Shown here one piece after another: positions 16,721 to 53,025 of a stretch of DNA of 64,000 nucleotides. The stretch spans positions 1-64,000 of IMG/VR virus record IMGVR_UViG_3300009149_000023. The stretch is one strand, 5' to 3'. The notes below the pieces were generated by a model. The model was not told the DNA's origin and made no database searches. It saw nothing but the letters and a program-made list of their open reading frames with translations. Position 1 is the stretch's first letter; each line of letters begins with the position of its first letter. The position numbers and the translations under genes were made by a program. This stretch comes from a virus.

Positions 16721-16737
16721 TCAATTGTTGTGTTTTT
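16721..16737 (-). promoter_or_regulatory. Candidate phage-RNAP promoter motif AAAAACACAACAATTGA
   Basis: Intergenic, sense to the leftward operon; 26/27 nt identical to the copy at 32994-33020. Confidence 0.65.
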
Positions 16738-16819
16738 ACATGTGTGAGAAAAACTCTTAAAATTTAAAAATGTAGAGTACTACTTATACATATGAGTATC
16801 TTTAAAGGAGTGTTCCTAT

Positions 16820-17869
16820 ATGGCTACTATTGTTATAGACCCTACGTATACTATCTCTGCATCTTCCTCAACTGCATCTAACTTAGCAGCACCTACAACA
16901 ACAGCAGGTGCAACAACTATACATCAGCATGGAGGATTAGCTTATGTAACAAGTACATCAGCCACCACAACTAATTATGGTTATTCACTATGGACAGACG
17001 ATATGGGCGGAGGTAGCCTTGCTCCTATAGATGCTGCTAATGAAGCTACCATAAAAATGCAAAGAGATATATATGACTACTACAATGAAAGAGACATGGT
17101 TTATAAATTTATGTATGAACCAGAATGGGGACGAATGCATGAAGATGGTGCTGTTAGGTTTAACTATCATGCTTTTACAGGATGGACAGACTTAGAAGCT
17201 ATAATAGACGAAAAGAATGAGATGTTAAGATTTGCTTTTTACAAGAATAGAGGATGGAAGGACGAGGAGGCTAAAGCAGATGCGAGTGTAAAAATCAATC
17301 TTGCTTATCACAGACACAACGAATGGAAAGATTTAGATTGGTATAAAGAAACAAATCATACTATGTTAATTACAGGATTGTCTGAATGCTTAGAATTTGA
17401 AGATTGTGACGCTCTTCGTGACATGGTTGACTTTGTACTTACAAAGGTAATAACTGAGAATAGAGGGTTAAGCACAACGATGCTTTCAGTATTATATCAA
17501 ATAATGGAAAAGATGGACAAAGCATTCATAAAGGTACTCCTGTTTAAAAATTATGGTGAAGCTAGCGAGGAGATAAGAACAATTCTTGCATGCATTGTAG
17601 AAGACGCTGCTAGCCCTTTTAAAGATTCAGATAGGCTTATGTTAGGTCAAATAGGATTACAGAAATGGTTAAAGCTAAAGGAACACGCAGATAAATATGC
17701 AAAAGTCTATGCTCCTTATATACCAGTACAGACATGGACTAAATCACAGCTAACCTATTGCGGGACAACAGCAGGGGCGCAACAAATTACTAATAGCACA
17801 ACAGTCAGAAAACCTGATGCTTTTGCTACACTGGATATAGCAAAATCTTGGTTAAAAGGAAATAACTAA
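16820..17869 (+). CDS. Hypothetical protein with Thr/Ala/Ser-rich N-terminus
   Basis: 349 aa, RBS AAAGGAG. Confidence 0.6.
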   Translation: MATIVIDPTYTISASSSTASNLAAPTTTAGATTIHQHGGLAYVTSTSATTTNYGYSLWTDDMGGGSLAPIDAANEATIKMQRDIYDYYNERDMVYKFMYEPEWGRMHEDGAVRFNYHAFTGWTDLEAIIDEKNEMLRFAFYKNRGWKDEEAKADASVKINLAYHRHNEWKDLDWYKETNHTMLITGLSECLEFEDCDALRDMVDFVLTKVITENRGLSTTMLSVLYQIMEKMDKAFIKVLLFKNYGEASEEIRTILACIVEDAASPFKDSDRLMLGQIGLQKWLKLKEHADKYAKVYAPYIPVQTWTKSQLTYCGTTAGAQQITNSTTVRKPDAFATLDIAKSWLKGNN

Positions 17870-17873
17870 ACTA

Positions 17874-18320
17874 ATGAAAAGTCAATCAATAATCTGTAAC
17901 ATTTGTAAACAATGTTGCTTAAACAGCAAAGCTGTTATTAGTCACTTAGTTCATAATCATCTTACACCTGCGTCATTAATGAAAATTACTATTGAGGACG
18001 ATTCCGAATTTCATGTGGTAGAGGTCACTAATTTAGATCTTGATGCTATTAACACACAAGCTAACCTTGCTACAACATTATTAAGTGGACAAAAGGCTGA
18101 AGGTAACACTTTAATAATAAATAAAGATCACGTATATACAGTAGAGGATACAGGATTAATAGTTTTGTGTTATTATCCACAAACTAATACAGCTATTTCT
18201 TTAGACAAGAAAGATGTTCCTGTATTATTAGAATCCTTACACGCAGTTATAGCCAAAGAGAATTCTATTAGAATTCAAAAATTAGCGAGCTTTACTTCAT
18301 TAGCTCGAAAGGTAGGTTGA
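17874..18320 (+). CDS. C2H2 zinc-finger-containing protein
   Basis: CNIC...HLVHNH at N-terminus. Confidence 0.55.
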   Translation: MKSQSIICNICKQCCLNSKAVISHLVHNHLTPASLMKITIEDDSEFHVVEVTNLDLDAINTQANLATTLLSGQKAEGNTLIINKDHVYTVEDTGLIVLCYYPQTNTAISLDKKDVPVLLESLHAVIAKENSIRIQKLASFTSLARKVG

Positions 18321-18321
18321 C

Positions 18322-18597
18322 ATGGACAAGTTTATTGGTATCATAGAAAGGCTACAATCTTCTAAAACAATAGCATTAGAAGATATTCGTAGCTTTACAG
18401 ACATTGTTGAAAATAGTTTAAGCATGGCTGTAGATTCTTTAGAAACAGCCAGAACAAGAGAAGCGATGATCTTTTCAGAATTCTTAGACAAACATTCCGA
18501 AAGAAAAATCACAATAACTGAGTTTTTAAAAACAATGAAAGTTACTAAGGATGTTAAAGCAGTATTCAGAGATTTTGTAAATGAGGTTAAAAAATGA
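18322..18597 (+). CDS. Hypothetical protein
   Basis: 91 aa ORF tightly packed in operon. Confidence 0.55.
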   Translation: MDKFIGIIERLQSSKTIALEDIRSFTDIVENSLSMAVDSLETARTREAMIFSEFLDKHSERKITITEFLKTMKVTKDVKAVFRDFVNEVKK

Positions 18598-18917
18598 CTC
18601 AAGTACGTTCCTTTTTCTGCATGTTTTCAACATTTTTTCGTCTGATAGGGATAGGCATTGCTGCCTTTATTGTTCTTTATGTAATAATGAGTTCAGGTTT
18701 TAATCAATGGATGGAGGTTAACCCTTTTGATTCTCAAATGATAAACACGATATTCTGGATAAGTATTTTCAATATCATGTTTATACTCGGACCGAGCTTT
18801 TTACTAATATATGATTTGTTTTATCAAACCAATTCAGAAACGTTTGCTAAAGCACATGAGCATGCACAACAAATTGTAGAAAAAGTACTCTCAACAAAAG
18901 ATGATGAAACAAAATGA
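18594..18917 (+). CDS. Two-TM membrane protein (holin-like topology)
   Basis: LIGIGIAAFIVLYVIM and IFWISIFNIMFILGPSFLLIY, charged C-tail; overlaps the SLT-like gene. Confidence 0.5.
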   Translation: MTQVRSFFCMFSTFFRLIGIGIAAFIVLYVIMSSGFNQWMEVNPFDSQMINTIFWISIFNIMFILGPSFLLIYDLFYQTNSETFAKAHEHAQQIVEKVLSTKDDETK

Positions 18918-19651
18918 GCCTTTGGTACATATTCAGATACAGAGCAAAACGAATGTTTTGTCTTATGTTGAGAAGAATTGCCATTAATTTAAATCAGGAG
19001 GACTTAATGAGTTCACGGTACAATCACATGCTGAAAGTTGTCAGCACAAAAAACAAGCTAAGGTATTCGGTGCTTAAAGGTTTTGTAGAAGTAGTTTCTA
19101 ACTACAATCCTTTTTTGTACGAGGTTGACGAAGCTTCGTGGGAAGAGATGTCTAAATATAGCACAGTGTGGGAACCTCTATTCAGAGATCATCACTCGCT
19201 TTATTTTAAAGACTTCAAACCAACAGAAGTCGAACTAAAAAATATGTATTGTGCTTATTACGGATTATGCAAAGTGCCTTACCACAAAGTAGCCTTGAGG
19301 GCAAACTTTAAGGAAAATCCATATGTACTTATTCAACAACCTATTAAGAACCTGGAAGTAGCTGCTGAACATCTTAAGACAATGGCAGCACATTTTCCTC
19401 ATATTAAAGAACCTTTCAAGTGGGCAGTAGCTTCAGTTGCTTATTTCTCAGATCCTATTAAGATAATGGATATGATAAAAGCAATTAAGTCAACTACAGT
19501 CGGCGATGCTGTGCAGCATCCTGACGCCTTGCAGAAGGCCCTGAGAAAGGGGTTTGGTGATCAAGCTGACTCTTTAATCGACTTGGTAGATAATTTTAGG
19601 ATAGCACAAGAGAAATACCAAAAAGAAGAATTGGAAATGATGGTTAGTTAA
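18914..19651 (+). CDS. Lytic transglycosylase (SLT)-fold protein, catalytic Glu apparently replaced
   Basis: LKGFVEVVSNYNP (cf. AII..ES.FNP), YYGLCKV (cf. GLMQV), QPIKNLEVAAEHL (cf. DP..NI..GA.YL), AVASVAYFSDP (cf. ALAAYNxGP). Confidence 0.55.
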   Translation: MSLWYIFRYRAKRMFCLMLRRIAINLNQEDLMSSRYNHMLKVVSTKNKLRYSVLKGFVEVVSNYNPFLYEVDEASWEEMSKYSTVWEPLFRDHHSLYFKDFKPTEVELKNMYCAYYGLCKVPYHKVALRANFKENPYVLIQQPIKNLEVAAEHLKTMAAHFPHIKEPFKWAVASVAYFSDPIKIMDMIKAIKSTTVGDAVQHPDALQKALRKGFGDQADSLIDLVDNFRIAQEKYQKEELEMMVS

Positions 19652-19679
19652 GACTGTTCGTATCTCCTAGTACGACAAC

Positions 19680-19730
19680 ATAAAAGAGACTCTGTACGTA
19701 AATGCGTAAAAGGAGTCTCTTTTATTTTTA
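19680..19730 (+). terminator. Intrinsic terminator (potentially bidirectional)
   Basis: ATAAAAGAGACTC...GAGTCTCTTTTAT inverted repeat followed by T tract. Confidence 0.75.
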
Positions 19731-19751
19731 GGTTGTTTTGCTCATATCGTT

Positions 19752-19767
19752 AAAACACAACAAGTGA
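19752..19767 (+). promoter_or_regulatory. Candidate phage-RNAP promoter motif AAAACACAACAAGTGA
   Basis: Directly after a terminator, ~35 nt before ATG 19798; 21/23 nt identical to 32986-33008. Confidence 0.65.
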
Positions 19768-19797
19768 TTGGAATAGTTCATGGAGGTATACTTAATT

Positions 19798-20364
19798 ATG
19801 AGTAAGAAAAGAGGAAAAAGTACAAAGGTCGCAAGTTGGAATTTTCTTGTAGCTAAAGATCGGATTAGAAAAGCTAAACCTTTAGTCTACAAACAATACG
19901 AGAAAGAACTAGTTGAGATAGCAAATGTGACTCGAGCACTATTTGAAAATGCTATCCTCAAGGACATGTATACTAAGCTTGCAAAACAGTTCTTTGAGCA
20001 GATTAAAGGGACTAGAACTTTAGAGCAAGCAGGCGAAATTATTAATGAATTTCTTACACTAGCAAATGAGACTTCAAAATCATCAGCTTTATTCGAAATC
20101 GACGAACAAATCAAAGATGTCGAAAAACAAGTTACCTCAATGACAGACGAAGGCAAAACTCAGGAAGAAATTGATGCTTATGTTGAAGAGCACCTAACTG
20201 CTCCTTTACAAAAGGTATATGAAGATTTAGAATCTGATGGTTTAGTTGAGGATGGCATATTAGCTGATGCTGAAAAAATACTTCAAGAAATTGAAGACGA
20301 GGAAAACCAAGCCGAGGGGGAAATAGATAATGGTAACACTGACGAGTCTGTATCGCTACGCTAA
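19798..20364 (+). CDS. Hypothetical protein, basic N-terminus and acidic C-terminus
   Basis: Start moved to ATG 19798 (RBS GGAGG). Confidence 0.6.
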   Translation: MSKKRGKSTKVASWNFLVAKDRIRKAKPLVYKQYEKELVEIANVTRALFENAILKDMYTKLAKQFFEQIKGTRTLEQAGEIINEFLTLANETSKSSALFEIDEQIKDVEKQVTSMTDEGKTQEEIDAYVEEHLTAPLQKVYEDLESDGLVEDGILADAEKILQEIEDEENQAEGEIDNGNTDESVSLR

Positions 20365-21049
20365 ACAAAAATTAGGACTACCTTATGTAGAATTTGAAAA
20401 GTCAGATGATGAGCTTTTCGAAATACTTAAAGAAACAACCATGCCTACTTTTAATCGTTACTTCCCTCATGTTAATAATATGGCACTTGACACACGTTTA
20501 GCTGAAAACTTAACAGATATTCCAAATGAGTATTGGTTAAGAGATCCAGACAATCAAGAAATATTTTCAGTTAGCAAAGTGTTAGATGTATATAACACGT
20601 TAATTGTTCATGGTTATCCTATTGATGTAGCATTCAGACAGTTTGATGATATTCCTAACTGGGCGTTAAGTGTAGATAGAGCTGAAACAGCTTATCTGTA
20701 TTCACCTGCTAGAATGACTTTTTCTTTTATGCCTCCAAACAAAATCAGAGTAATGCCTTCTAATTCAATCTCGGGCGGAGTGTTTACTGTGCAATATGAA
20801 AGAGGTCATAAAGACGATTTAAGCACACTTCAGAATCAATACGAGCATTATCTTAAAGAACTTTTTCTAGCTGATTGCAAACTTGAAATAGGTAACATAA
20901 GAAAGAAGTATCAGAACTTCACAACACCTTTTGGAGAGATTCCTCTGAATGGTGATGATCTTATTTCTCAAGGAACTGCAGAAAGAGAAAAGTTATATTC
21001 TGAGTTTGAAGAAAAAGCTCTGCCGAATATTCTAATCAAAGTCGGATAA
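20330..21049 (+). CDS. Neck/head-tail adaptor protein, T4 gp13-like
   Basis: YAKQKLGLPYVEFE...YLKELFLADCKLEIGNIRKKY...IPLNGDDLISQGTAEREKL...ILIKVG. Confidence 0.8.
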   Translation: MVTLTSLYRYAKQKLGLPYVEFEKSDDELFEILKETTMPTFNRYFPHVNNMALDTRLAENLTDIPNEYWLRDPDNQEIFSVSKVLDVYNTLIVHGYPIDVAFRQFDDIPNWALSVDRAETAYLYSPARMTFSFMPPNKIRVMPSNSISGGVFTVQYERGHKDDLSTLQNQYEHYLKELFLADCKLEIGNIRKKYQNFTTPFGEIPLNGDDLISQGTAEREKLYSEFEEKALPNILIKVG

Positions 21050-21073
21050 GTACTAACAGGAGGATTACGCATA

Positions 21074-21721
21074 ATGACGTTTGCATTTGATATTGATGGA
21101 GTTATTGTTGATGTTAATAAAACAGTGCAGCAATATCTCAGAAAAACACATAACCTAACATACAAACAATTAGGTGTACAATATATCTGGCCTAAGCGTT
21201 TGTCTGAGTTTGAAGGTGTATTTGATGAGATGATTCGTCTTGATATAGAAAGGTTCATCTTTCAATCTTTCGATTATATACAAGACAGCATTTACCGTAC
21301 AGCCATCCTAAGCTCAATGAAGACTTTAGGCAAACAAGGACATAAAATTTACATAATTACCAATAGGCCCATTTATACAAAAGATGTTACACGACAGTGC
21401 TTTCCTGAAGATGTAGCTGAACATATAGAAGATTTCTTATTCTTTGAAGAAGGCATAGATACAGAAGGTAATGAAGACCTTTTTAAAATTAAAAGATGTC
21501 AATCGGTTAATGTTGACGTTTTAATAGATGATCGTGCTGATAATATAAAAGCTTTCGCAGAAACTACTAAGCATGGATTTTGGTTTGTCGATGAGATTCC
21601 TGAGGCAGATAGAATCAATGAAATTACAAAGTTAAACTCTGTTATTGTGTGTGACAGCAGTAACTTAAAGAAAAAACTCAGAGAGGTAATATACAATGTC
21701 AACTCGTCTGAAAGACACTGA
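21074..21721 (+). CDS. HAD-family 5'(3')-deoxyribonucleotidase-like protein
   Basis: FDIDGVI motif I, IITNR motif II, K, LIDDRADN motif IV. Confidence 0.8.
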   Translation: MTFAFDIDGVIVDVNKTVQQYLRKTHNLTYKQLGVQYIWPKRLSEFEGVFDEMIRLDIERFIFQSFDYIQDSIYRTAILSSMKTLGKQGHKIYIITNRPIYTKDVTRQCFPEDVAEHIEDFLFFEEGIDTEGNEDLFKIKRCQSVNVDVLIDDRADNIKAFAETTKHGFWFVDEIPEADRINEITKLNSVIVCDSSNLKKKLREVIYNVNSSERH

Positions 21722-24569
21722 AAAATTCTGTGCCAAACTGATCCCCGTTACCTCTCCTTCTGTATTTAGAAAATTAGGAGAAACTGTAACCTTTGATGAG
21801 AAAGGTATTCTTTCTTATGAGATCTTTGGTACTAATGAGAATGAAAGAAGGGTAAGACACTCTTTCATTAATCTAAAGAATGTTCAAGTTCTTCATCCTA
21901 TTCTATACGATAAACTGAAAATTAATAGTAAGTTAAAAAACATTCTATATAATAAAGGTTCTTACATTATTAAGGGTGGCGAGCTTATTGCTGACCCAAA
22001 TGGAGATACAGGCATATCATTTTTTAAGTCTATTGTAGGAAGATATAAGCCTGAATCAGCTGCTATTCAAAAAGTCTTTGATATTATTAAAGTATCACCT
22101 TTTGCTTTCTTAAATAAGATTATTGTGATACCTCCTGCATTCAGAGAGACTGGAAAAGAATTAGTTTATAGAACCGTAACGGATCTCAATAAAGCATATA
22201 CTTCTTTAATTCGTGCAGCTAATGCAATTGCGGCTTCGGGAGACGCTGATGCTTACTCGGCTGAAATACAAAGGCTCATGGAAAATCTATATATTGCTAT
22301 TAAAGCACAAATTGGTTCCAAAGACGGAATATCAAGATCAAATATTCAAGGAAAACGTTTAGACTTTTCAGGTCGCGCTGTTATTACAATGGACCTGTCC
22401 TTAAAAATAGATGAATGTATTCTTCCTTTAGTTATAGCATTAAAAATGTTTGAACCTTTCATAATTGCTGAGTTTAAGAAACAGCCCGGACGTAAGCCAG
22501 GCGACTATTTAATTTATGATATGTTACAAGATGTTTATGATAATCTTGATGCCAGTGACTATTATGAAGAAGTTAAGAAAGTAATAGATTCAATTGCCGC
22601 AACACGCCTTGTGCTGCTTAATCGTGCACCTTCTCTACATAAACTATCACTGCTTGCATTCAAACCGCGCATAACCTTAGATAAGGTTATCAAACTAAAT
22701 CCTTTTATACTTGATGGATACAATGCTGACTTTGATGGTGACCAGATGGGTGTATACAGTCCTTTGACAAGACAAGGACAAGAGGAAGCTAAAAAACTTC
22801 TACCTTCCAATAACTTATTTAATGTAGCTTCAAGAAAGATATCAACACAGCTTTCTGAAAACTTTGCGTTATACTTATATTATAGTACTGCATGGGAGTC
22901 AACTTCTGCACCCGCAAGTAAGTTAGACACTAATAAAAAGAATCTTGATTTCTTTAGACGTGTTACACTTAAAGGAGAAACAGCTACCGTAGGCAGATGG
23001 TTATTAACTCTTGCTATTAGAGAAGCTGTCTTGGATGATAAGTATCCTATAATTAAGCAGCCTATAAATAAATCAATATTTAGTCAAATGTTATCTGATA
23101 TCTTTATGAAGTATGGTAAGAATGCTTTGATAGGTGTGCTGTATAAAGTTAGAGATTTGACCATGGAATATGGTTCATTACTACCAGACGTACTTCCTGA
23201 AATAAAACTTAGTGACACTGCTAAGAAAGAGCTCCTTCCTAAAATAGAAGAATTAAAACATACTCCTGATGTATGGGATGATATTGTAAGTATAGTAAAA
23301 AGAGATATAAGAAATCATCAAAAGAACTTATACATTCTTCTTGAATCTAAAACAACTAAGCTTGACTGGAATAAGATTACACAGGCGTTAGTTGCTAAAG
23401 GCTATACTCAAACACTTTCAGGTGAGAACAAATTAATGACATCAAGTCAGCTCGATGGTTTAACACAAGAAGAACTTTTAGTGGATACTTCTAATGCTAG
23501 AAGAGGTATTGTTGACAGAGCTCTTATGACAGGTAAGCCTGGTTATTTAACCAGAAAGCTAATTTTTGCATTAGGCTCAACATTACTACATCCTACATTA
23601 AAAGATTGTGGAACTAGCAGAACACTAAAACTAAGAGTAAACAAGAATCATGTTAATAGCTTAGTAGGAAGATATGCTTTATTAAATGGTAAGCTAGTTT
23701 TACTTGAGAAAGCTGATGCTGAAAAATTAGTAGGAAGTACAATCAATGTAAGGTCTCCTGCCTACTGTAAGAGTAAACAAATATGCCATACTTGTTATGG
23801 CATGCTAAGCAAATATGTGAACTCAAAGAACATAGGTATTATAGCTTCTCAAGCTATAGGCGAGTTAGGTACTCAGATGATTATGAGAACCTTCCATGTA
23901 GATACTCTTGTTACTACAGCTAAAAAGACATTACCTACTATTAAAGAATTTAAGTTAACAGATGCAGGTTATGTAGCGATGCAGCCTGTGGTAATACATT
24001 TAAAGAAAGACGATATAGAAGAAAGGTCTGACTTTAGTATAGTAACAAAAGCTATTACTGTCAACGATGCACGATACGATTTTGTATTTACTGTTTCCTT
24101 ATTAGCTGTCGAAGACTCAAGAGAAACAGCAACTACACTAGAGTTAGCATTTCCTAAAGGAGCTATTCCTCTATTCGGAGGCTCAACAGGACATCTAAGG
24201 GATAAGATATCTGAAGTTGATGGTTTATTTGAATTAAGTCAGAAACTAAAAATTAGAGATGCCACAGCATTACTAGAAAGACTATTTGATGAATATTATA
24301 CGCTTGGTAAACTAGATCATGTACATTTTGAATTGTTTATAGGTGCTATGATGAGAAGTAAAGCTAAGCCTGAAATTCCTTTCAGATTATCAACTGATAC
24401 AGCTTACCAATTAGTGCCTATCTCAAAAGTAGCACTTTATGAAAGTCCTCAACTTGCTTTTATATTCCAAAGACAGTCAGATGCTATTATTGCAGGACTA
24501 TATCAAGATACTCTTGAAGAAGACCCAGAAGAACGAACCAAATCCGATTTAGAAGAATATTACTACTAG
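21696..24569 (+). CDS. rpoC: DNA-directed RNA polymerase beta-prime subunit (unsplit, phage-encoded)
   Basis: GKRLDFSGRAVI, LNRAPSLH, catalytic NADFDGDQM, bridge helix ARRGIVDRALMTGKPGYLTRKL, DCGT/RSPAYC/ICHTCYG zinc site, trigger loop IGELGTQMIMRTFH. Confidence 0.97.
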   Translation: MSTRLKDTEKFCAKLIPVTSPSVFRKLGETVTFDEKGILSYEIFGTNENERRVRHSFINLKNVQVLHPILYDKLKINSKLKNILYNKGSYIIKGGELIADPNGDTGISFFKSIVGRYKPESAAIQKVFDIIKVSPFAFLNKIIVIPPAFRETGKELVYRTVTDLNKAYTSLIRAANAIAASGDADAYSAEIQRLMENLYIAIKAQIGSKDGISRSNIQGKRLDFSGRAVITMDLSLKIDECILPLVIALKMFEPFIIAEFKKQPGRKPGDYLIYDMLQDVYDNLDASDYYEEVKKVIDSIAATRLVLLNRAPSLHKLSLLAFKPRITLDKVIKLNPFILDGYNADFDGDQMGVYSPLTRQGQEEAKKLLPSNNLFNVASRKISTQLSENFALYLYYSTAWESTSAPASKLDTNKKNLDFFRRVTLKGETATVGRWLLTLAIREAVLDDKYPIIKQPINKSIFSQMLSDIFMKYGKNALIGVLYKVRDLTMEYGSLLPDVLPEIKLSDTAKKELLPKIEELKHTPDVWDDIVSIVKRDIRNHQKNLYILLESKTTKLDWNKITQALVAKGYTQTLSGENKLMTSSQLDGLTQEELLVDTSNARRGIVDRALMTGKPGYLTRKLIFALGSTLLHPTLKDCGTSRTLKLRVNKNHVNSLVGRYALLNGKLVLLEKADAEKLVGSTINVRSPAYCKSKQICHTCYGMLSKYVNSKNIGIIASQAIGELGTQMIMRTFHVDTLVTTAKKTLPTIKEFKLTDAGYVAMQPVVIHLKKDDIEERSDFSIVTKAITVNDARYDFVFTVSLLAVEDSRETATTLELAFPKGAIPLFGGSTGHLRDKISEVDGLFELSQKLKIRDATALLERLFDEYYTLGKLDHVHFELFIGAMMRSKAKPEIPFRLSTDTAYQLVPISKVALYESPQLAFIFQRQSDAIIAGLYQDTLEEDPEERTKSDLEEYYY

Positions 24570-24578
24570 GAGGCAGCT

Positions 24579-27500
24579 TTGTATCTGCAAAGATTTAGAT
24601 TATTTAGTTCACGAGACCCTAAACTCCGGTTTGAAGACGAAGGTTATAGAATATTTACTATAGTGGAGAATTCAACTTTTCCTAAACTATATCCTAAGTC
24701 AGGCCTCATGAAAGAAGATTGCCGTATTGTAGTAATCCCTAAAGTTCAGACAAAGTTTGGTTTAGTGCAGACTGCTAAATTAAAATCCGATTACTCCGCA
24801 ACTAAATTAGTTTCGTATATTGATACACATACTATTAAAGAATCCGATAAGAATGCTTATATAGACTTAACACCTGTAATGGACTTTATGCGCCCACGTT
24901 TAAAAAGGTTTGATTCAGATGTTGCCTACAGAACATTTATGGCTATGATGGATAACCTAGATACAGGTCCAGGTAAAAAAGTTTTACTTTATATGCTTGA
25001 TATGACAAGGCCTGCAGCATTACGATTAACAGAGATGTATATAGCTGTATTGATTTATGCTATGATGCGAAGAAAGACTATGCCTTTCCATACAGTAATG
25101 TTTGGTGCTATTGGCGGTGGTAGTAAGTTTAGAAAGATTTATGAAGCTGACGATTCGTTAAACAGTTATCAAAAGATTATATCAACTATGAGGACTGAAC
25201 TTTCACATATGAGTTCAGGTGCCATGTCTATTGCAATGGCGCAGCAAATTAGCGAAGACTTAGATGTGCCTACAGAAAAGGTAATTCCTATTATAAAGAC
25301 TCTAATAAGTGATACACCCCCTGAGCAAAGATCTAGACTTATAAACCTCGCAAATGCTGATCCTAAGAAGATTAGGGAAATAGTAGTTAAGACTTCTCAG
25401 AAGATGACAGGGCATACTATCATTAAAGATCTACCTTTACAGCTAAAGAAAGTTGAAATGAAAACTTTGTCTGCTGATATGCCTAGTGCACAAATTACAC
25501 AAGTAACGGAGTTAACAAAAGCTAAGCAACCTGTTACTTCACTTGATATAAGTTCAGATCTTAATACACATTTAGTTATTCCTAGGATGACTTTAAACGT
25601 TAATTCAGTATCATTAGCTCCTTTAGTTAATCATGTTACTGGTAAAGAGTTTTCAACTACGTTGGATGTTAGCCCTAATCCTAAGTTTTCAGGAACTAAC
25701 CTTATTAAAGTTAAGATTGTTGATTCCAAGACAAATAAAACACAGGACATCGAAGCAATTATCCCTAACTTAAAGTCTGATGGATCCTTTAAGATGTATG
25801 GACAAACATATACACTTAAGAAACAAATTGCGTCACTTCCTGTAGCAAAGTATAAAGAGAATGAGATTTCTATTGAAACATTACTGACTAACTTTAAGCT
25901 TGTTCGCAAAAAAGTAGGGCATAAAGTTTATATCAATTTCAGTAAGTATACTTCACTGCCTTTATTCTATTATTTAGCTGCTGTTATAGGACCAGAAGCT
26001 CTTTGTAAGAAACTAGACATCGAGGTCACTAAAACAGGAAAAGGTTTAACACTGCAACCTAAAGGTGGCTTAGGTTCAATAATTTCTCCAAAGATGCTAG
26101 AATCAACTGACAAAGACTACTTTAAAAAAGAGTTAGAGAAGATGATAGGTAACAGAGGATTAATTCACTACTTAGTAGAGAAGCTTCCAGAAAAAGCAAT
26201 AGATCCTAGCACGCTTGATTTACTTAAAACATCTAAGATGCCAACTAATTTTATTGATATGATTATATTTGCAGCAACAAAACTGGTTAAGGATTTACCG
26301 GAAGCTCCTAATGACCTACATCATAGAAGAATAAGATCAACAGAAGTAGTTAATAAGATATTCTTATCTGGCTTAGATAGAGCACTTAGTACTTATAAAC
26401 AGGATGTAGCTTCTGGTAGAGTAGATGCTGACATTGTAATTGATCCTAACTTTGTTATGAATACTTTGAGAGAAACGGGTGCTATAGACTTTGCGGAAAG
26501 TAAACCTAATCCTGTAGCAGAAATTGCTAGTAAGAATAAAGTAAATTATTCAGGCTATGCTACGTTTAGATCAGAGAATACTCCTATAGCTTTTAGAGAT
26601 ATTCATCCGTCACAGAAAGGATTACTTGATCCAATCGAAACAGCAAAAGATTCTTCAGTGGGAGATCAATTATATTTAACAGTATCTCCTAACATAATGT
26701 CTAATAATAATCTTTTTGTTCCTACAAGCAACCCTGATTCAATGCTAGGCTATACAACTAGCTTAACTCCTTTTCTTGAATCTTCTGCTACCGCACGTAC
26801 AAACATGGGAACCTCTCATACAAAGCAAGCAGTACCTATAGTTGAGTCTGAAGCACCTTTTGTTATGAGTGGTATAGAAGGTGTCTATAAAGACATTACT
26901 TCTGACAAGTTTATTACTAAGTCACCTGTAGACGGAAAAGTTACTTCTATTAAGAAAACTTATATGACTATTACAGACAAGGCTAAAAAGACACATAAGA
27001 TCAATCTTGTTAAACCGCATATTACTACAGGAACAGGTATAGCAATAAATAATGTACATGCACCCGTTGTAAGTGTAGGTGATAACGTAAAGGTAAAGGA
27101 TATCCTAGCTGAAAACTTTACCTTCAAAGGCGGCATTCTTGCTATAGGAAAGAACTTGCTCTGTGCCTTTGCTTTATACAATTCTACTAATTACATGGAT
27201 GGTGTTATCATATCATCACATTTAAAAGAGAGCATGGCTGTTGAAGAGATTAGTAAAAAAGTAGTGTATGTAAATCCTGAAACAGATAGAATACTTCATT
27301 TTCATTCTAAGCTAGGACCTATTGGAAAGAATACAACGCTTATTAAGTATGATACTTCTGCTTTTAACATAGCAGCTTATGAAAGGTCAGTAGTTACAGT
27401 AAAAGGAAATGCTATAGGATCATTAGAAGCTATTGTATTAAAAGCACCTAAGAAGTCCTTAGCAGATGAGCTGTTACGAAAACTTCCAGACATAGATAAG

Positions 27501-28430
27501 AGTAATATAACTGTTATCATTAAGGATGACATAGATAAAACCGTCGAGCTTACATTTGAAGTTAAGTTACTGAATACTCTTAAAGTTGGAGACAAGTTTG
27601 GTAATAAGCACGGAAACAAAGGTGTTATTAATCACATCATTCCTGAAGAAGAAACTCCTTACATTGTAGAAGATGGAAGATGGTTAGATTGTGTATTAAA
27701 TCCTTTGGGACTGTTTGGTCGAACTAACTGGGGACAGTATAAAGAATTATTGGTGTCTGCTATATTGTATGAGTTTAACAAACAGTTTGTAGAGATATAC
27801 AAAGTCAAAGGAAGGAAAGCAGCTTCTGAATATTTTGCTTCTTCTGCTGTTAAGTTAAACAAGATTAAAGATTATGACAAACTAATTCTTTCTAGGCTTA
27901 ACAGGATGTCTGACAAACAGATGAAGGAATTAGTTACTAGCATTAAAAAGGAAGAGCAATTACTTCCTATACACATTCCTCCATTCAAGAGTGCTTCGTA
28001 TAGTGATCTATTAGCATTAGGAGAACAGCTAAATGTAGTTAAGACTATTAGATGTCCTGAACTTGGTAAAGATATTAGAGCATTAGTAGGTTACATGTAT
28101 TTCCATAGGCTAGAGCATTTACCTGAGTACAAATTAAATGCTAGGTCTACAGGTGTTTATAGATACAGAACTAAGCAGCCTGTTGCTGGAAAGAAGATGA
28201 TGGGTGGACAAAGATTTGGAGAAATGGAAAATTGGTGTTTACTTTCACATGATTGTCCTACAATAATGCAAGAGTTTAAGACAGTGCAGTCTGATGACTT
28301 TGATTATAAGAATAAAGTTATAACACAGATACTAAATGGTGAAGTTCCTGAAATGCCTGCAACTAAACAGCATACTGCAATTTACGATATGTTCAAAGCT
28401 TTAATGACCGGGTTGCATATAGATATTTAA
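24579..28430 (+). CDS. rpoB: DNA-directed RNA polymerase beta subunit (unsplit, with long N-terminal extension)
   Basis: FRDIHPSQKGLLDPIET, RTNMGTSHTKQAVP, GDKFGNKHGNKGVI, LNPLGLFGRTNWGQ, LEHLPEYKLNARS, GGQRFGEMENWCL; TTG start with RBS GGAGG. Confidence 0.96.
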   Translation: MYLQRFRLFSSRDPKLRFEDEGYRIFTIVENSTFPKLYPKSGLMKEDCRIVVIPKVQTKFGLVQTAKLKSDYSATKLVSYIDTHTIKESDKNAYIDLTPVMDFMRPRLKRFDSDVAYRTFMAMMDNLDTGPGKKVLLYMLDMTRPAALRLTEMYIAVLIYAMMRRKTMPFHTVMFGAIGGGSKFRKIYEADDSLNSYQKIISTMRTELSHMSSGAMSIAMAQQISEDLDVPTEKVIPIIKTLISDTPPEQRSRLINLANADPKKIREIVVKTSQKMTGHTIIKDLPLQLKKVEMKTLSADMPSAQITQVTELTKAKQPVTSLDISSDLNTHLVIPRMTLNVNSVSLAPLVNHVTGKEFSTTLDVSPNPKFSGTNLIKVKIVDSKTNKTQDIEAIIPNLKSDGSFKMYGQTYTLKKQIASLPVAKYKENEISIETLLTNFKLVRKKVGHKVYINFSKYTSLPLFYYLAAVIGPEALCKKLDIEVTKTGKGLTLQPKGGLGSIISPKMLESTDKDYFKKELEKMIGNRGLIHYLVEKLPEKAIDPSTLDLLKTSKMPTNFIDMIIFAATKLVKDLPEAPNDLHHRRIRSTEVVNKIFLSGLDRALSTYKQDVASGRVDADIVIDPNFVMNTLRETGAIDFAESKPNPVAEIASKNKVNYSGYATFRSENTPIAFRDIHPSQKGLLDPIETAKDSSVGDQLYLTVSPNIMSNNNLFVPTSNPDSMLGYTTSLTPFLESSATARTNMGTSHTKQAVPIVESEAPFVMSGIEGVYKDITSDKFITKSPVDGKVTSIKKTYMTITDKAKKTHKINLVKPHITTGTGIAINNVHAPVVSVGDNVKVKDILAENFTFKGGILAIGKNLLCAFALYNSTNYMDGVIISSHLKESMAVEEISKKVVYVNPETDRILHFHSKLGPIGKNTTLIKYDTSAFNIAAYERSVVTVKGNAIGSLEAIVLKAPKKSLADELLRKLPDIDKSNITVIIKDDIDKTVELTFEVKLLNTLKVGDKFGNKHGNKGVINHIIPEEETPYIVEDGRWLDCVLNPLGLFGRTNWGQYKELLVSAILYEFNKQFVEIYKVKGRKAASEYFASSAVKLNKIKDYDKLILSRLNRMSDKQMKELVTSIKKEEQLLPIHIPPFKSASYSDLLALGEQLNVVKTIRCPELGKDIRALVGYMYFHRLEHLPEYKLNARSTGVYRYRTKQPVAGKKMMGGQRFGEMENWCLLSHDCPTIMQEFKTVQSDDFDYKNKVITQILNGEVPEMPATKQHTAIYDMFKALMTGLHIDI

Positions 28431-29445: not shown

Positions 29446-29453
29446 GGTAGTTT

Positions 29454-31807: not shown

Positions 31808-32073
31808 CTAAATCAATCTTTAACCATATCTCACACTCCTATATATTTCAGAATACTGCATTAAGTCAAAAGAAGTTTTCTGAAAGGATAGTAACAAGTT
31901 ACCCACACCATAGAAAAAGAACAGTAATCTTAGAGCTCACATTACATCAGATGATTATTGCTTATGCCTATCAATTTTTGTTTACTATTAGATGGTTTCC
32001 TTTAAAAGACCCTCGTCACTTAAACATAAGTCTCCTAAGGCCACACCTCTACAACTGGAAACACACTAAGTAG
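31804..32073 (+). CDS. Small hypothetical protein
   Basis: 89 aa, ATGA overlap, RBS AGGAG. Confidence 0.45.
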   Translation: MTKSIFNHISHSYIFQNTALSQKKFSERIVTSYPHHRKRTVILELTLHQMIIAYAYQFLFTIRWFPLKDPRHLNISLLRPHLYNWKHTK

Positions 32074-32995: not shown

Positions 32996-33012
32996 AAAAA
33001 CACAACAATTGA
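32996..33012 (+). promoter_or_regulatory. Candidate phage-RNAP promoter motif AAAAACACAACAATTGA
   Basis: Intergenic, upstream of the tail-fibre operon; followed by small hairpin AAGTAGTAC-ACTTTA-GTACTACTT. Confidence 0.65.
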
Positions 33013-33065
33013 AGTAGTACACTTTAGTACTACTTTTTCTGTGTTTATTCAAGGAGGTTTACCTT

Positions 33066-42775: not shown

Positions 42776-42790
42776 AAACACAACAATCGA
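42776..42790 (+). promoter_or_regulatory. Candidate phage-RNAP promoter motif AAACACAACAATCGA
   Basis: Intergenic, ~40 nt before ATG 42827. Confidence 0.6.
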
Positions 42791-43411: not shown

Positions 43412-43414
43412 ACA

Positions 43415-43811: not shown

Positions 43812-44846
43812 ATGAGTAATAACATCAAAACCCTACTGGAACAAATTGAAGCCAAATACAATGGCCCAATCGAACCACTTATTCGCGCAAAAGCTAATCT
43901 TAATGCGGGAGTAGACTATAGCACACTAGGTAAAAGACTTCAGGGTTTCATTTCGCAGAAACTTTATGAGTCTCTTAGCTCAGGCAGTGTAGTTGACGTT
44001 GACGGATTGTGTGAAAACATTATCGGTATTATCCGTGAAGAAATGGATGAACGTGAACTAGTAAAACATGAAAAAGGTGACAAAGACGAAGAAGAGGAAG
44101 TGCAAAAAGAAGCCACAGACTCTGACAATGATAACGAAGCAGAGTTTCGACAGGATGATGATGCTGTAACTGAATCTCTAGAAGAGCAGGTTAACGCAAT
44201 CCTTGAAGAACTGGAAGGCGAAGAAGAAAAAGAAAAAGATGGATCTCTTGAAGAAGAGATTAATCAGATCTTTGAAGATCTTGAGGATGAAGGCGAAGGA
44301 AGCGACGAAGCTGATGAACAGGAAGAGCCTGAATGTATTCCTAACCCAAAGTTTAAAGCAAAAGAAGCTCCAGCCGAAGAAGTTCCAGCCGAAGAAGAAA
44401 AGAAAGATGACGAAGATCTTTCTTTAGAAGATCAGATCAACACAATGCTTGATGAACTTCTAATAGAAGGTGAAGGTGAAGGCGAAGAAGAAGAAGAGAA
44501 AGATGAACCCGCTATGGATGAACTTGAAGACGAAGAAATTGAAAAAGAAATTTCTGAAATCCTCGAAGCTCTTGATAAAGACGACGACGAAGAGAAAAAA
44601 CCTGAAACAGTAGAGGAATCTCTTTCTGAACTCGTTTCCAGTATCCTTGAAGAACTTGAAGATGACAAAGACAACGCTGAAGACATCGTCAATGAAATGA
44701 AAGAAGGTGCTGAAGAAGAAGAATCAGTAGAAGACATCGAGAAGAAAGTTGAAAGTGTTCTCGAAAGTCGTGGAATCAATATCGGATCCAATAAAGTTAA
44801 AGCTCTTACAGAAGCTCTTGTGAATTCAATTCTCAAGGATCTGTAA
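43812..44846 (+). CDS. Acidic prohead core/scaffolding protein
   Basis: Very Glu/Asp-rich; repeated SLEEQ(V/I)N.IL.EL; LxE sites; near portal; start moved to ATG 43812. Confidence 0.65.
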   Translation: MSNNIKTLLEQIEAKYNGPIEPLIRAKANLNAGVDYSTLGKRLQGFISQKLYESLSSGSVVDVDGLCENIIGIIREEMDERELVKHEKGDKDEEEEVQKEATDSDNDNEAEFRQDDDAVTESLEEQVNAILEELEGEEEKEKDGSLEEEINQIFEDLEDEGEGSDEADEQEEPECIPNPKFKAKEAPAEEVPAEEEKKDDEDLSLEDQINTMLDELLIEGEGEGEEEEEKDEPAMDELEDEEIEKEISEILEALDKDDDEEKKPETVEESLSELVSSILEELEDDKDNAEDIVNEMKEGAEEEESVEDIEKKVESVLESRGINIGSNKVKALTEALVNSILKDL

Positions 44847-44871
44847 TCTCAAATTTTAACTACGTTTACAG

Positions 44872-44908
44872 TATGGCGGAGTGTTTAGTCGCTCCGCCAT
44901 ATTTTTTT
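44872..44908 (+). terminator. Intrinsic terminator
   Basis: TATGGCGGAG...CTCCGCCATA stem followed by T7. Confidence 0.85.
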
Positions 44909-49907: not shown

Positions 49908-49922
49908 AAACACACTAATTGA
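49908..49922 (+). promoter_or_regulatory. Variant of the candidate promoter motif, AAACACACTAATTGA
   Basis: Two mismatches to AAACACAACAATTGA; intergenic, upstream of the unit ending in the major capsid gene. Confidence 0.45.
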
Positions 49923-49941
49923 AGAGATGGAGGAATACTTA

Positions 49942-50220
49942 ATGCACGTTGAAGGGATTCTCACACAAGAGACAGATATTGTCTTGAAAAGAGACACTGT
50001 AGACAAACTAACTGAAAAGCTAGTGAAAGACACTAATAAAGACATTTACAACAGACTTAGAATTGTAAGAGCGTGTACAACTAGAGTCTCAAATGATACT
50101 ATTAAAGTTAAAGAAGAAATTTCAATTTTAGAAGACAAAATTGAATTAAATGAAACGGAAATTCAGAAGTTACTTCTTGTAATAGCTTCGGCTATAGAAC
50201 AGGAGGCTGCAAATGAGTAA
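49942..50220 (+). CDS. Small coiled-coil head-region protein
   Basis: Start moved to ATG 49942 (RBS GGAGG). Confidence 0.55.
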   Translation: MHVEGILTQETDIVLKRDTVDKLTEKLVKDTNKDIYNRLRIVRACTTRVSNDTIKVKEEISILEDKIELNETEIQKLLLVIASAIEQEAANE

Positions 50221-50539
50221 GCCGTTAACCATAACACCAATCGGAGAGAGAAGTCTCTTTGATGAAGTGTTGAACGAGCAACTAACACAGCTCGTGCTTC
50301 AAGAAGTTTCTCAAGACGCGAAGGAAAAGAAAGAGCGAATTAATAAAATTGAGAACTTACTCTTGAAACACAGAGCCGTTTTGAAAAAGCTACGCAGTAA
50401 ACGTGAATCACTTTTAGTTGAGTTCGACCGCCAAGAGCGAAGGAAGAAGGAATTACGCGATCTCATCCAAAAGATTCAAACAGTTAAGTTAGTTGTACCA
50501 GCTGATGTAAAAGCTGAAGTAAGACAAATCTTTAATTAG
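50213..50539 (+). CDS. Small coiled-coil head-region protein
   Basis: RBS GGAGG; LNE/LQE sites, heptads. Confidence 0.55.
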   Translation: MSKPLTITPIGERSLFDEVLNEQLTQLVLQEVSQDAKEKKERINKIENLLLKHRAVLKKLRSKRESLLVEFDRQERRKKELRDLIQKIQTVKLVVPADVKAEVRQIFN

Positions 50540-50572
50540 AAACAAGTTAAAAACTATCGGAGGAACACTTTT

Positions 50573-52006
50573 ATGAGACAGATTCTTTTAGAGACCAAAC
50601 AACGCCTAGAAGCTAATCATGGCGTGAACATGGTTACAGAAATGCAGCGTATCCTCGCTGAACCAGTACTTTTTGAGGAATATATTGACGGCTTGTCACA
50701 GGGCATGAATGATGCCGATGCTGAGCAGTTTAAAGTTCTTGCAGAGAATACTGGTGCTAACCTGATGGAAAACTCCATCTTCGGTTATAATCCTTATGCA
50801 GTTTTGGTTATGCCTCTTCTTAGGAAGTTCTGGCCACGCCTTTCTGTTAAGGAAGCTGTAACTGTATCCCCAATGAGCAGCCCAAGCGTTGTTCGTTATT
50901 TCATTAAGCCTATGGCTAAAACCTATCTGGGAACAGAAGTCGAACTTCCAGATTTCAACAACAACGTATCACTCGGACCACAAGTTCCTGTGACTCCAGC
51001 TGTTGTCGTTCCTTCCCAGACTGATCTTCTGAATCTTCTTGGATTGACTTCCGCAATGGGTTCAATCTCTAGAACTCTCAGAGTAACTGCAGTATCCGAT
51101 GGAACTAACACTGAACCATGCAGCATCGAGACAGACATCGATGGTAACTTCTCTTCAGCTGTTACTTTCCAGGCTACTTCAGTAACAGACGTCATCCAGG
51201 GTCATGTTGATTTTAAGAATGGTATAATCAGCCTTAGCTCAGTTGGTGGAGTCATCACTGGCGCTACTCTGTATGCTATCGTCTCTCTGGAACAGAATAC
51301 TATTAATACAAACATCGAATTCAGAACTGAAAAGATTTTGTTCGAAGCTCTGACACGAAAGCTTAGTGCTCGTTGGTCAGTTGAGTTTGAACAGGATACT
51401 AAAGCTCTGTTCAATCTCGATGCACAGGCCGAGCTTATCAGCATCATGAGCAATCAGATTGCTGTTGAAATCGACAAAGAAATCATCACCGAACTTCTGA
51501 CTACAGTACAATTCCTGCACAACACAGCTATCGATACTTTTGATAAGACTGTTCCTGCTGGTTTTGCTTTAGGTCCGAAGGCTTGGTACGAAAACATTCT
51601 TGTTAAGATGAATGCTCTTAGCCAGACTGTATACAAAGATACAAACATCGCACCTGCGAACATTATTCTTTGTAACCCAAGCGAAGCTGCTATCCTTGAA
51701 ACAACTAACAGGTATGTATATGTAAGTGATGGCTTCTCCGGAAGCGAGCACACATATCGCGTAGGCACACTGGAATCAGGTAAGTGGAGAGTTATCGTAA
51801 CTCCTATCGTTCCTGAAGGCAAAATGCTTATGCTCATCAAACCTGCAGAAGAAAGAGCAGCTGTGTATTTCTACTGCCCATACATTCCAGTAACTATTTA
51901 TCCGTTCCCACTAGGAACCATGCCAAGCATGACACTTATGACTCGCTATGCGAAAGCAGCAGTGCGTCCTAAGGGTATTGCTTTGCTCAATGTTGTTGCT
52001 ACATAA
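50573..52006 (+). CDS. Major capsid protein, T4 gp23-like
   Basis: MPLLRKFWPRL...PMSSP; RKLSARWSVEFEQD...LDAQAEL...IAVEIDKEII; YFYCPYIP...LMTRYA; NLME maturation site; terminator follows. Confidence 0.93.
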   Translation: MRQILLETKQRLEANHGVNMVTEMQRILAEPVLFEEYIDGLSQGMNDADAEQFKVLAENTGANLMENSIFGYNPYAVLVMPLLRKFWPRLSVKEAVTVSPMSSPSVVRYFIKPMAKTYLGTEVELPDFNNNVSLGPQVPVTPAVVVPSQTDLLNLLGLTSAMGSISRTLRVTAVSDGTNTEPCSIETDIDGNFSSAVTFQATSVTDVIQGHVDFKNGIISLSSVGGVITGATLYAIVSLEQNTINTNIEFRTEKILFEALTRKLSARWSVEFEQDTKALFNLDAQAELISIMSNQIAVEIDKEIITELLTTVQFLHNTAIDTFDKTVPAGFALGPKAWYENILVKMNALSQTVYKDTNIAPANIILCNPSEAAILETTNRYVYVSDGFSGSEHTYRVGTLESGKWRVIVTPIVPEGKMLMLIKPAEERAAVYFYCPYIPVTIYPFPLGTMPSMTLMTRYAKAAVRPKGIALLNVVAT

Positions 52007-52031
52007 GAGTAGTTTCAAACGCTAAGAAATC

Positions 52032-52068
52032 AAGAAGGCTCAGTTTCGGCTGAGCCTTCTTTTTTTTT
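52032..52068 (+). terminator. Intrinsic terminator after major capsid gene
   Basis: AAGAAGGCTCAG-TTTCGG-CTGAGCCTTCTT followed by a T run. Confidence 0.9.
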
Positions 52069-52101
52069 GCCTTTTCACTATTTTAGGGAGAACATAATTG
52101 T

Positions 52102-52983
52102 ATGATTCAACTATATCAAATTGGTACAACACTAGCATCGCTAGGGCTGATCAGACAGGCTTTAGAGGAAGAAGGAGAACGCACTGCGCTAAAAACTCTT
52201 GACACTTTAATGGTATCTATCTATACACTCATAGGTCTAAGCCAGGCTGCTGCAAAGTCTGTTCATGAAGAAAAAATCATCCCTAAACTCCAAAAAGCTC
52301 CTATACACGCTTACTTCACTGAAAGGATACAAGACCTAACTAAGAATAAAACTATTAGTGTGCACTCAGCTCCTCATGCAATAGAGCAAAAAGGGTTACA
52401 ACCTTGTTTTATAGTTCCTGGAATTAAGAATAAGATTTTTGTAGACCCAGTAGTTATGGATAGACTACATGTGCCCCCTAAGTTTACTAGATACCAAGTG
52501 CAGATAGCTTTGCTATTACATGAGTATGGTCATTTAAAACTAAACCACGATAAATACTATGAAAGTTTTAAGAAAAGAGTACTACCTAATATCTTGTTTA
52601 GTTTAGGTAAACATCTCTTAACTAGAATGGCAATCAAACGTATTGAAGAAAATGCTCATGATATGACCGATGAAGAAAAGAGCAAGTTCTTTAACTTTGT
52701 CGTTCTGTGTGCTGTTTCCTATACAATAGTTGAAATACTAGCTGTGGCTTATTTCAAGAGAGAACCTGAATATGCAGCTGATACAGAAGTTAAGGGAGCA
52801 TTTAAAGATGCTTACGAAGCTTATCTTAAATCAATGGCTAAAGCTGAACAAGCACAGACTGCCCACTATGACAAGTTAATGAGGATATTTAAAACTGTGC
52901 TTAAACATATAAAAGACATATCATCTCAGAATCCTACGTTTGAACAGAGACTCAATAAAGTTGCTAAATCGGACACCCCGTAA
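52102..52983 (+). CDS. Zinc metalloprotease, M48/HtpX-like, with hydrophobic segments
   Basis: ALLLHEYGH, downstream FKREPEYAAD, NPTFEQRL; hydrophobic FVVLCAVSYTIVEILAVAYF. Confidence 0.7.
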   Translation: MIQLYQIGTTLASLGLIRQALEEEGERTALKTLDTLMVSIYTLIGLSQAAAKSVHEEKIIPKLQKAPIHAYFTERIQDLTKNKTISVHSAPHAIEQKGLQPCFIVPGIKNKIFVDPVVMDRLHVPPKFTRYQVQIALLLHEYGHLKLNHDKYYESFKKRVLPNILFSLGKHLLTRMAIKRIEENAHDMTDEEKSKFFNFVVLCAVSYTIVEILAVAYFKREPEYAADTEVKGAFKDAYEAYLKSMAKAEQAQTAHYDKLMRIFKTVLKHIKDISSQNPTFEQRLNKVAKSDTP

Positions 52984-53010
52984 AAACCTTAATAGATCGA
53001 GCATTTTCTG

Positions 53011-53025
53011 AAACACAACAATTAG
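53011..53025 (+). promoter_or_regulatory. Candidate phage-RNAP promoter motif AAACACAACAATTAG
   Basis: Intergenic, ~30 nt before ATG 53054, upstream of baseplate/terminase/tape-measure genes. Confidence 0.6.

Follow-up and report, generated by a model that had tools for sequence, protein, structure and literature searches.

A conserved 15-nucleotide intergenic element ahead of virion and RNA polymerase genes of an uncultivated phage: a candidate promoter for the phage's own gp226-type polymerase

Introduction

Which RNA polymerase reads a short sequence that recurs between the genes of a phage encoding a multisubunit RNA polymerase of its own? The question is raised by the viral record IMGVR_UViG_3300009149_000023, a linear fragment from IMG/VR whose completeness is put at an estimated 25%. 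The window analyzed here comprises bases 1-64000 of this single 73,096-base contig; counts given for the contig cover all 73,096 bases. A preliminary description of the window had proposed that a repeated motif is the late promoter of the phage, read by a factor resembling gp226 of phage AR9. The element is real, non-randomly placed, and conserved in relatives; it is very probably a promoter of some kind, and on the combined analysis it is moderately likely that it serves the phage polymerase acting with the gp226-like factor. Its reader, its start site, and its strand-specific recognition are matters that we infer.

Results

Occurrence, placement, and shape of the element

The full element is 15 nucleotides (nt) long, AAACACAAyAATTGA. 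Its exact 11-mer AAACACAACAA is found five times in the window (16725-16735 on the minus strand; 19753-19763, 32998-33008, 42776-42786, and 53011-53021 on the plus strand), against 0.14 expected, and none of 100 dinucleotide shuffles reached five. No further exact 11-mer is present in the rest of the contig, and allowing one mismatch added only one site (3740, coding, antisense), no more than chance. Variants are located at 49908 (AAACACACTAATTGA) in the window and at 65115 (AAACACAAAAATTAG) past its end. The five exact copies named in the preliminary description were recovered, with 19752 and 32996 off by one and two bases, respectively, and its variant at 49908 proved real.

Copies and the units that they head are given below, with lengths in amino acids (aa). 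Gene contents were assigned by PHROG matches and are broadly those first described; start coordinates are predicted, at element position 14, giving predicted leaders of 21-55 nt.

16721..16735, minus strand: copy AAACACAACAATTGA, 24.5 bits, in a divergent junction; predicted start 16722
16672 to 3, leftward: unit of the 16721 copy, with baseplate-like genes, the gp226-like gene, and a Cas4-like nuclease
19753..19767, plus strand: copy AAACACAACAAGTGA, 22.0 bits; predicted start 19766
19798-28430, plus strand: unit of the 19753 copy, encoding a 188-aa protein, adaptor-like and HAD-like proteins, beta', and beta
32998..33012, plus strand: copy AAACACAACAATTGA, 24.5 bits; predicted start 33011
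33066-42033, plus strand: unit of the 32998 copy, encoding a 136-aa protein and three large fiber-like proteins
42776..42790, plus strand: copy AAACACAACAATCGA, 22.0 bits, heading unit 42827-44846; predicted start 42789
49908..49922, plus strand: variant copy AAACACACTAATTGA, 20.7 bits; predicted start 49921
49942-52006, plus strand: unit of the 49908 copy, encoding two small proteins and the major head protein
53011..53025, plus strand: copy AAACACAACAATTAG, 22.0 bits; predicted start 53024
from 53054, plus strand: unit of the 53011 copy, encoding a 258-aa protein, a baseplate-hub-like protein, the large terminase, and virion proteins
65115 of the contig, beyond the window: variant copy AAACACAAAAATTAG, intergenic, sense
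32059..32073, plus strand: weaker candidate copy AAACACACTAAGTAG, 15.8 bits, the top match below the seven clear sites

When a position matrix was run over the contig, the best seven matches (19.8-24.5 bits) were all intergenic and sense. Gene starts were called in this analysis, leaving 2,918 intergenic bases (4.0% of the contig), so that seven intergenic placements out of seven have a chance probability of about 0.04^7 by our own arithmetic. Below the seven, the next match is the 15.8-bit candidate at 32059, and matches of 8-15 bits all lie within coding sequence; the motif is not equally common there, as the comparison of intergenic with coding sequence proposed earlier now indicates. In a blind 7-mer test of the intergenic segments the three most enriched words were parts of the element, ranking above Shine-Dalgarno words, and no other motif class was enriched. 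The intergenic, sense position near a start codon first reported applies to all copies, the last element base lying 19-53 nt from the chosen start codon.

Candidate 32059 coincides with the last 15 nt of an open reading frame (ORF; 31804-32073), gene 32118-32507 beginning 44 nt further on, and may be an eighth copy.

The shape of the element was taken from an alignment of 12 sites, seven from the contig and five from relatives. Information is limited to 15 positions, AAACACAA-y-AA-T-T-R-R, and amounts to about 17 bits (sum of the per-position values, positions 1-15); positions 1-7 are invariant, and of the 12 sites one departs from A at position 8, one from T at position 13, and none from a purine at position 14. 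The last two counts remove an earlier caveat, that spacing to the T-purine start is not uniform. The element is strictly oriented and not a dyad, and no conserved box flanks it in the 12 sites from 29 bases upstream to 30 bases downstream.

Three copies resemble each other further: the flank similarities reported before, 26/27 for 16725 versus 32998 and 21/23 for 19753 versus 32998, were reproduced, and copies other than 16721, 19753, and 32998 share nothing outside the 15 nt. Just before the element these three (16700-16760, 19728-19767, 32973-33012) have in common an upstream sequence, approximately TTT..CTCAyA..GTwAA, which is missing from the other four contig copies and from the five copies in relatives. 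Given this similarity, and given that the three head the factor, polymerase, and fiber units, they may form a sub-class, for example of other timing or strength.

Conservation in relatives

Protein searches returned two close beta relatives and five factor relatives, all metagenomic. The close relatives compared at locus level were two: L001 (23.9 kb; beta 47% identical; 41.6% G+C) and L002 (11.4 kb; beta 36% identical; 27% G+C). With 36.5% G+C in the present contig, the three genomes span 27-42%, and their hosts probably differ. Both were scanned with a matrix built from the seven sites of this contig alone. L001 has four sites of 21-24.5 bits (0.15 expected at 15 bits or more; best of 100 shuffles, 18.0), and L002 has one of 17.7 bits (0.13 expected; best shuffle, 18.3), which is marginal on its own.

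The sites are syntenic with copies in the window. L001 3397-3411(-) precedes a 58%-identical orthologue of 16193-16672, as does the 16721 copy here. L001 5076(+) and L002 1417(+) stand, like window 19753, ahead of the gene string leading to the adaptor-like gene, beta', and beta, and an orthologue of window 19798-20364 is among the genes behind the element in the relatives. L001 18726(+) precedes a 716-aa protein that is 52.6% identical to the 712-aa fiber-like protein 33497-35635 and corresponds to window 32998; slightly upstream of it, L001 18437(+) lies ahead of a small ORF and is comparable to candidate 32059. Three copies (window 16721, L001 5076, and L002 1417) sit between divergent genes, a place at which transcripts have to start, and terminator-like hairpins are found just upstream of window 19753 and L001 3397.

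Scans of viral contigs with beta and with the close gp226-like alignment, and a scan of genome contigs, gave no further relatives. An exact 15-mer scan of viral contigs found at least 117 loci (1.02 Mb) with one exact match each; among the matches listed, six of 117 loci match a second time at 17 bits or more. Beta, beta', and the factor have no relative encoded in any of the 117, nor were close relatives of the contig proteins found there, and these loci are treated as background.

In the distant relative L005, the gap after the factor gene (11135-11201) contains two similar words, GAACAAAAAAAATGAGA and GAACTAAAAAAAGAGAG, the first of which fits AACA-(7N)-TG. Gaps are few there, and the words may represent another member of this class of promoter.

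The polymerase subunits and the gp226-like factor

8247..9611, minus strand: putative gp226/gp68-type sigma-like promoter-specificity subunit, 454 aa
21696..24569, plus strand: unsplit beta'-like subunit, 957 aa, with Pfam RNA_pol_Rpb1_2 and Rpb1_5
24579..28430, plus strand: unsplit beta-like subunit, 1283 aa, with Pfam Rpb2 domains 3, 6, and 7

The 454-aa protein has no Pfam match; in PHROG it matches phrog_25005, 'RNA polymerase' (E 2.5e-7). Its sole sequence match among solved structures is chain A of 7s01/7um0/7um1, the AR9 non-virion polymerase holoenzyme (7s01_A: E 3.6e-7 over residues 92-407; 1.2e-7 with a 59-sequence profile, positions 8-426 of 475). An AlphaFold2 model made with the 59-sequence alignment reached a predicted local distance difference test score (pLDDT) of 88.4; an earlier six-sequence model was poor in the sigma2-like region (65.2). 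With this model Foldseek retrieved 7um0_A (2.6e-9), 7s01_A (5.8e-9), and PhiKZ 8que_B (2.5e-5), each with probability 1.00, and every other match had E >1; the template modelling (TM) score is only 0.42, the solved gp226 consisting of two domains joined by a linker. Sequence and model together identify the protein as a real gp226/gp68 homologue.

In AR9, Y210, Y246, and the main chain at Y263 take part in DNA contacts, and W208 lies in the 2.1bis helix (PMC9209446). In one pairwise HMMER alignment, on which all residue correspondences rest, AR9 W208, Y210, Y246, and Y263 pair with W182, Y184, Y221, and Y238; among the positions aligned with the AR9 2.1bis helix, whose residues hold the template-strand bases, W182 is nearly invariant in the 59 homologues, and AR9 I207 and V206 pair with F181 and P180.

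The catalytic subunits are nearer to cellular enzymes. Best solved relatives of beta' are bacterial beta' chains (E ~2e-49), and beta matches bacterial beta chains at E 9e-59 versus only 4.4e-14 for the AR9 non-virion chain 7s00_C; tblastn with beta returned only distant polymerases of <60% identity. The factor gene shares a contig with beta and beta' here and in L001, and in L005 and L006 (factor 22-24% identical) a gp226-like gene lies directly before beta'-beta, an adjacency linking the three proteins. A search for further beta or beta' copies in the contig and, with two queries, in L001, L002, L005, and L006 returned none, and no sigma-70 family domain (region 2) was found in the contig.

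In L001 6460-9992 beta' is divided over two ORFs (483 and 662 aa), whereas the window and L002 each have it in one (957 and 963 aa, respectively). Possible causes are a natural split as known from jumbo-phage polymerases, insertion of an intron or intein-type element, and an error of assembly.

Comparison with known phage promoters

AR9 late promoters have the consensus A(-11)ACA-(6N)-U-A/G(+1) and are read by the gp226 holoenzyme (PMC5449584, PMC5312081), which agrees with the AACA near -11 cited in the preliminary description; they need gp226 and are recognized in the template strand (PMC9209446), and 17 of them deviate in spacing or in one or two bases (PMC5312081). Here AACA occupies element positions 2-5 in 12 of 12 sites and is followed, after seven bases, by the T-purine pair of positions 13 and 14; a start at position 14 would put AACA at -12 to -9. 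The likeness to AR9 late promoters thus comprises the AACA core, its fixed distance to a T-purine, the lack of a -35 element, and the position before virion genes; as AR9 does, the phage encodes a gp226 homologue and beta/beta'-type catalytic subunits. Unlike in AR9, the spacer has one nt more (7 against 6), conservation covers 15 nt as opposed to 4+2 bases, beta and beta' are one polypeptide each and nearer to bacterial subunits, the uracil-selecting valine is replaced, and the polymerase and factor genes lie behind the element.

PhiKZ has a sigma-like fifth subunit of the same fold family (8que_B), and its non-virion enzyme with gp68 transcribes late genes; its late promoter, T(-3)ATG(+1) (PMC7598289), is unrelated in sequence, and its subunits are split. 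In known jumbo phages there are two sets of polymerase, and the elements read by the virion enzymes are long and highly conserved (PMC7598289, PMC5312081), such as the AR9 early promoter AAATATATATTAT-(6N)-G (PMC5312081). Those early promoters are, like the present element, long conserved single blocks that can be found by word over-representation; unlike it they are AT-only and precede early genes, whereas positions 4 and 6 of the element are always C and the genes behind it are those of the virion and the polymerase.

Among uncultivated tailed phages with cellular-like beta and beta' genes, the mReC group of Weinheimer and Aylward 2020 offers a further parallel: metagenomic Caudovirales with deeply branching beta/beta', some contigs exceeding 200 kb (PMC7481178). 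The words 'promoter' and 'sigma' are absent from the main text of that paper. In the literature searched, gp226/gp68-type factors are known only from jumbo phages with split subunits, and neither a link of such factors to metagenomic phages with unsplit subunits nor a report of the element was found. 'Promoter' features of YerA41 were considered as a parallel and rejected, being merely sigma-70 predictions.

Candidate host-type promoters, terminators, and hairpins

16735..16763, plus strand: host-type (sigma-70/sigma-A-like) promoter candidate TTTACA-17-TAAAAT, 10/12 matches
19683..19730, plus strand: strong hairpin and T-run, ending the early-looking module 23 nt before the 19753 copy
33011..33036, plus strand: 10-pair hairpin followed by a T-rich stretch, beginning at the predicted first transcribed base of the 32998 copy
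44870-44903: terminator-like hairpin, ending unit 42827-44846
52032-52061: terminator-like hairpin, ending unit 49942-52006

Genes point leftward up to about 16.7 kb and rightward beyond. Candidate 16735-16763 lies ahead of a rightward, early-looking module (16820-19651), which encodes five proteins without family match, one of them conserved in L001 and L002, and overlaps the element on the opposite strand by one base. In L001 a perfect TTGACA-17-TATAAT at 4990-5019(-), the only zero-mismatch site in the contig, L001, and L002, faces away from the 5076 copy and stands ahead of a three-gene module whose homologues are inverted in the window (17874-19651). From these promoters, the host polymerase probably serves the early module. 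Sigma-70-like sites are not enriched overall (67, 56, and 42 found versus 69.8, 78.6, and 53.0 expected); only the placement of a few is suggestive. No -35/-10 hexamers 16-18 nt apart are tied to the element, in agreement with its reported lack of resemblance to sigma70 boxes; none of the listed sigma-70-like sites lies downstream of it on the same strand, and just one adjoins a copy, 16735-16763, which is on the opposite strand. A host-type -10 box shared by the polymerase-operon leaders was rejected: TATAAT occurs at 7 nt in L001 versus 15 nt in L002, and the window has none.

The 70 nt upstream of the 19753 copy fold with -18.9 kcal/mol and the leader of the 32998 copy with -14.1 kcal/mol; hairpin 33011-33036 could be a 5' stabilizer or attenuator of the fiber unit. 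GTAGTAC words near two copies, taken as a candidate for a separate motif, are instead arms of local hairpins.

Other features

13247-13648: baseplate-wedge-like gene, by PHROG
20330-21049: adaptor-like gene, by PHROG, in the polymerase-gene unit
33497-42033: fiber-like genes, by PHROG
50573-52006: major head protein, by PHROG
56243-57913: large terminase, by PHROG
4189-4941: Cas4-like/exonuclease protein, 250 aa (PHROG 1706, E 3.6e-23), in the same leftward unit as the sigma-like factor
21074-21721: HAD-type protein, 215 aa, between the adaptor-like gene and beta'

The HAD-type protein has weak, sub-threshold matches to the pyrimidine 5'-deoxynucleotidase (NT5C) and polynucleotide kinase families; between the adaptor-like and beta' genes L002 has no counterpart, and none was detected in L001. 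A nucleotide-pool enzyme at this place would matter given the uracil DNA of AR9.

The window has no Rfam families or tRNA genes, and megablast of 19000-34000 against GenBank phages gave no matches. Several highly placed genes have in common an extended translation start region, GGAGG(A/T)ATACTTAAT..ATG (19780-19800, 42810-42829, and 49925-49944), which exceeds a plain Shine-Dalgarno sequence in length. An intergenic sequence of about 35 nt, ATCCAGGACATAACAAATACATCTGGAAATCTTAA, occurs twice past the window end (contig positions ~70538-70572 and ~71796-71830), each time just after the gene of a membrane-anchored-looking protein, and includes a short CCAG/CTGG inverted repeat.

Discussion

The element would, on the reading favored here, be a self-contained promoter for the phage multisubunit RNA polymerase (21696-24569, 24579-28430) joined by the gp226-type subunit (8247-9611). 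If this factor acts as gp226 does in AR9, it would bind the AACA core in melted DNA, at about -12 to -9 and probably in the template strand, and initiation would be set at the conserved purine 14, after the conserved T. Virion-gene units, the polymerase operon, and the unit of the factor gene would all be driven in this way, the early-looking module being served by the host-type -35/-10 promoter. What speaks for the late promoter proposed in the preliminary description is that the element behaves as a compact, oriented start signal, that its positions are syntenic, that it has the AACA...T-purine arrangement, and that the factor is homologous to gp226; that proposal is partly supported.

Several observations weigh against this reading. 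The exact 6-base spacer of AR9 is absent, the spacer being 7 nt: the pair after six bases is T12-T13, and imposing the AR9 spacing makes the start fall on a T. Element positions 6-11 (C, AA, y, AA) are conserved here without counterpart in the 4-base AR9 core, so that recognition may differ. AR9 V206, which selects uracil, corresponds to P180 here and to alanine in relatives, and this replacement allows no conclusion on a preference for T or U. In the distant relatives with gp226-like genes (L004/L005, L006) the element gave no match above about 14 bits; L004 and L005 are identical over the compared stretch, and L005 and L006 offer too few intergenic gaps for motifs to be discovered. No element copy heads the units beginning at 44934 and 52102, each of which follows a terminator. 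A second polymerase or other promoters may lie outside the contig, given its estimated completeness, and for the same reason the polymerase, factor, and promoter set said to share the window has its genes there and is not claimable as complete. Lastly, the circularity already noticed, the gp226-like gene lying downstream of one copy, is wider than described: in each of the three genomes the element stands ahead of the beta'/beta operon, and in this contig the factor gene lies behind the 16721 copy, about 7 kb downstream. With both behind the element the enzyme needs a seed, in contrast to AR9, whose g226 has early promoters (PMC5312081). Read-through, a weak host promoter, a packaged enzyme, or a second polymerase would be possible seeds.

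The last two of these lead to an alternative that is unlikely, in which the late promoter belongs to another polymerase of the phage, whether single-subunit or a second multisubunit set, encoded in the unseen three quarters of the genome, and the window polymerase is made late, possibly packaged in the virion, for other (early) promoters. A contig holding an estimated 25% of the genome leaves room for such an enzyme. Gene order also suits it: in three genomes the beta'/beta operon, with its adaptor-like virion gene, stands behind the element, and the factor lies among baseplate genes, as would be expected of late, virion-destined products; two polymerase sets, with virion enzymes reading long elements, are also the arrangement described for jumbo phages (PMC7598289, PMC5312081). 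The gp226/gp68-type subunit, however, belongs in AR9 and PhiKZ to the non-virion enzyme that reads late promoters, AACA...T-purine is the gp226-dependent class and not the AT-only early type, and neither the contig nor, with two queries, L001, L002, L005, and L006 yielded a second beta or beta'.

Host polymerase redirected by a phage product, either an unrecognized sigma factor or an activator binding the element, with the phage polymerase serving another gene class, is a somewhat less probable account still. It would do away with the circularity of a polymerase behind its own promoter, and two features of the adjoining early-looking module suit it: the host-type promoters there, by which the host enzyme is probably used at first, and the five proteins without family match, one of them kept in L001 and L002, that the module encodes. 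Yet a redirected host enzyme would leave the phage polymerase without a detectable promoter class, since the blind word test gave no other intergenic motif. The element has, moreover, no -10/-35-like box at a fixed distance, the contig no sigma-70 region 2, and a strictly oriented sequence without dyad is kept across phages of 27-42% G+C with probably different hosts.

That the element acts in RNA, as a processing site, 5'-leader stabilizer, or translation signal, is very improbable. Its sense orientation 19-53 nt before start codons and the hairpins after two copies would suit such a role; set against them, three copies in divergent junctions have no upstream gene on the same strand as a source of precursor, two copies directly follow terminator-like hairpins, copies differ by more than 30 nt in their distance from the ribosome-binding site, and Rfam has no match in the window. 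Chance matches or functionless remnants of repeated or mobile sequence can practically be discounted, for although three copies have extra flank similarity (26/27, 21/23) as in duplicated DNA, the others share only 15 nt, five copies stand against 0.14 expected, and the intergenic placement, the blind word test, and the sites of relatives, with positions kept where beta is only 36-47% identical, all argue otherwise.

If the element is indeed the promoter of the phage polymerase and its gp226-like factor, the phages compared here might, as a tentative proposal, represent a lineage with a three-gene machine, one-piece bacterial-like beta' and beta plus a gp226-type sigma, intermediate between the sigma-dependent polymerases of cells and the fragmented non-virion enzymes of jumbo phages. 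Such a machine would use an information-rich 15-nt promoter of AR9 type, read in the template strand without need of uracil DNA for specificity, and would keep its own genes in a positive feedback seeded by host transcription or by packaged enzyme. In the literature searched, AR9, with split subunits and uracil DNA, is the one system for which template-strand recognition by a sigma-like viral subunit has been worked out; here the same kind of factor pairs with unsplit, bacterial-like subunits and with a long promoter conserved in three divergent genomes. With its three genes and a synthesizable site of 15 nt, the set is compact and testable; it could reveal how DNA is read by gp226-type factors, whether dependence on uracil is ancestral or peculiar to AR9, and how phage polymerases diverged from cellular ones; for this metagenomic phage group, the element is also a practical rule for marking transcription units.

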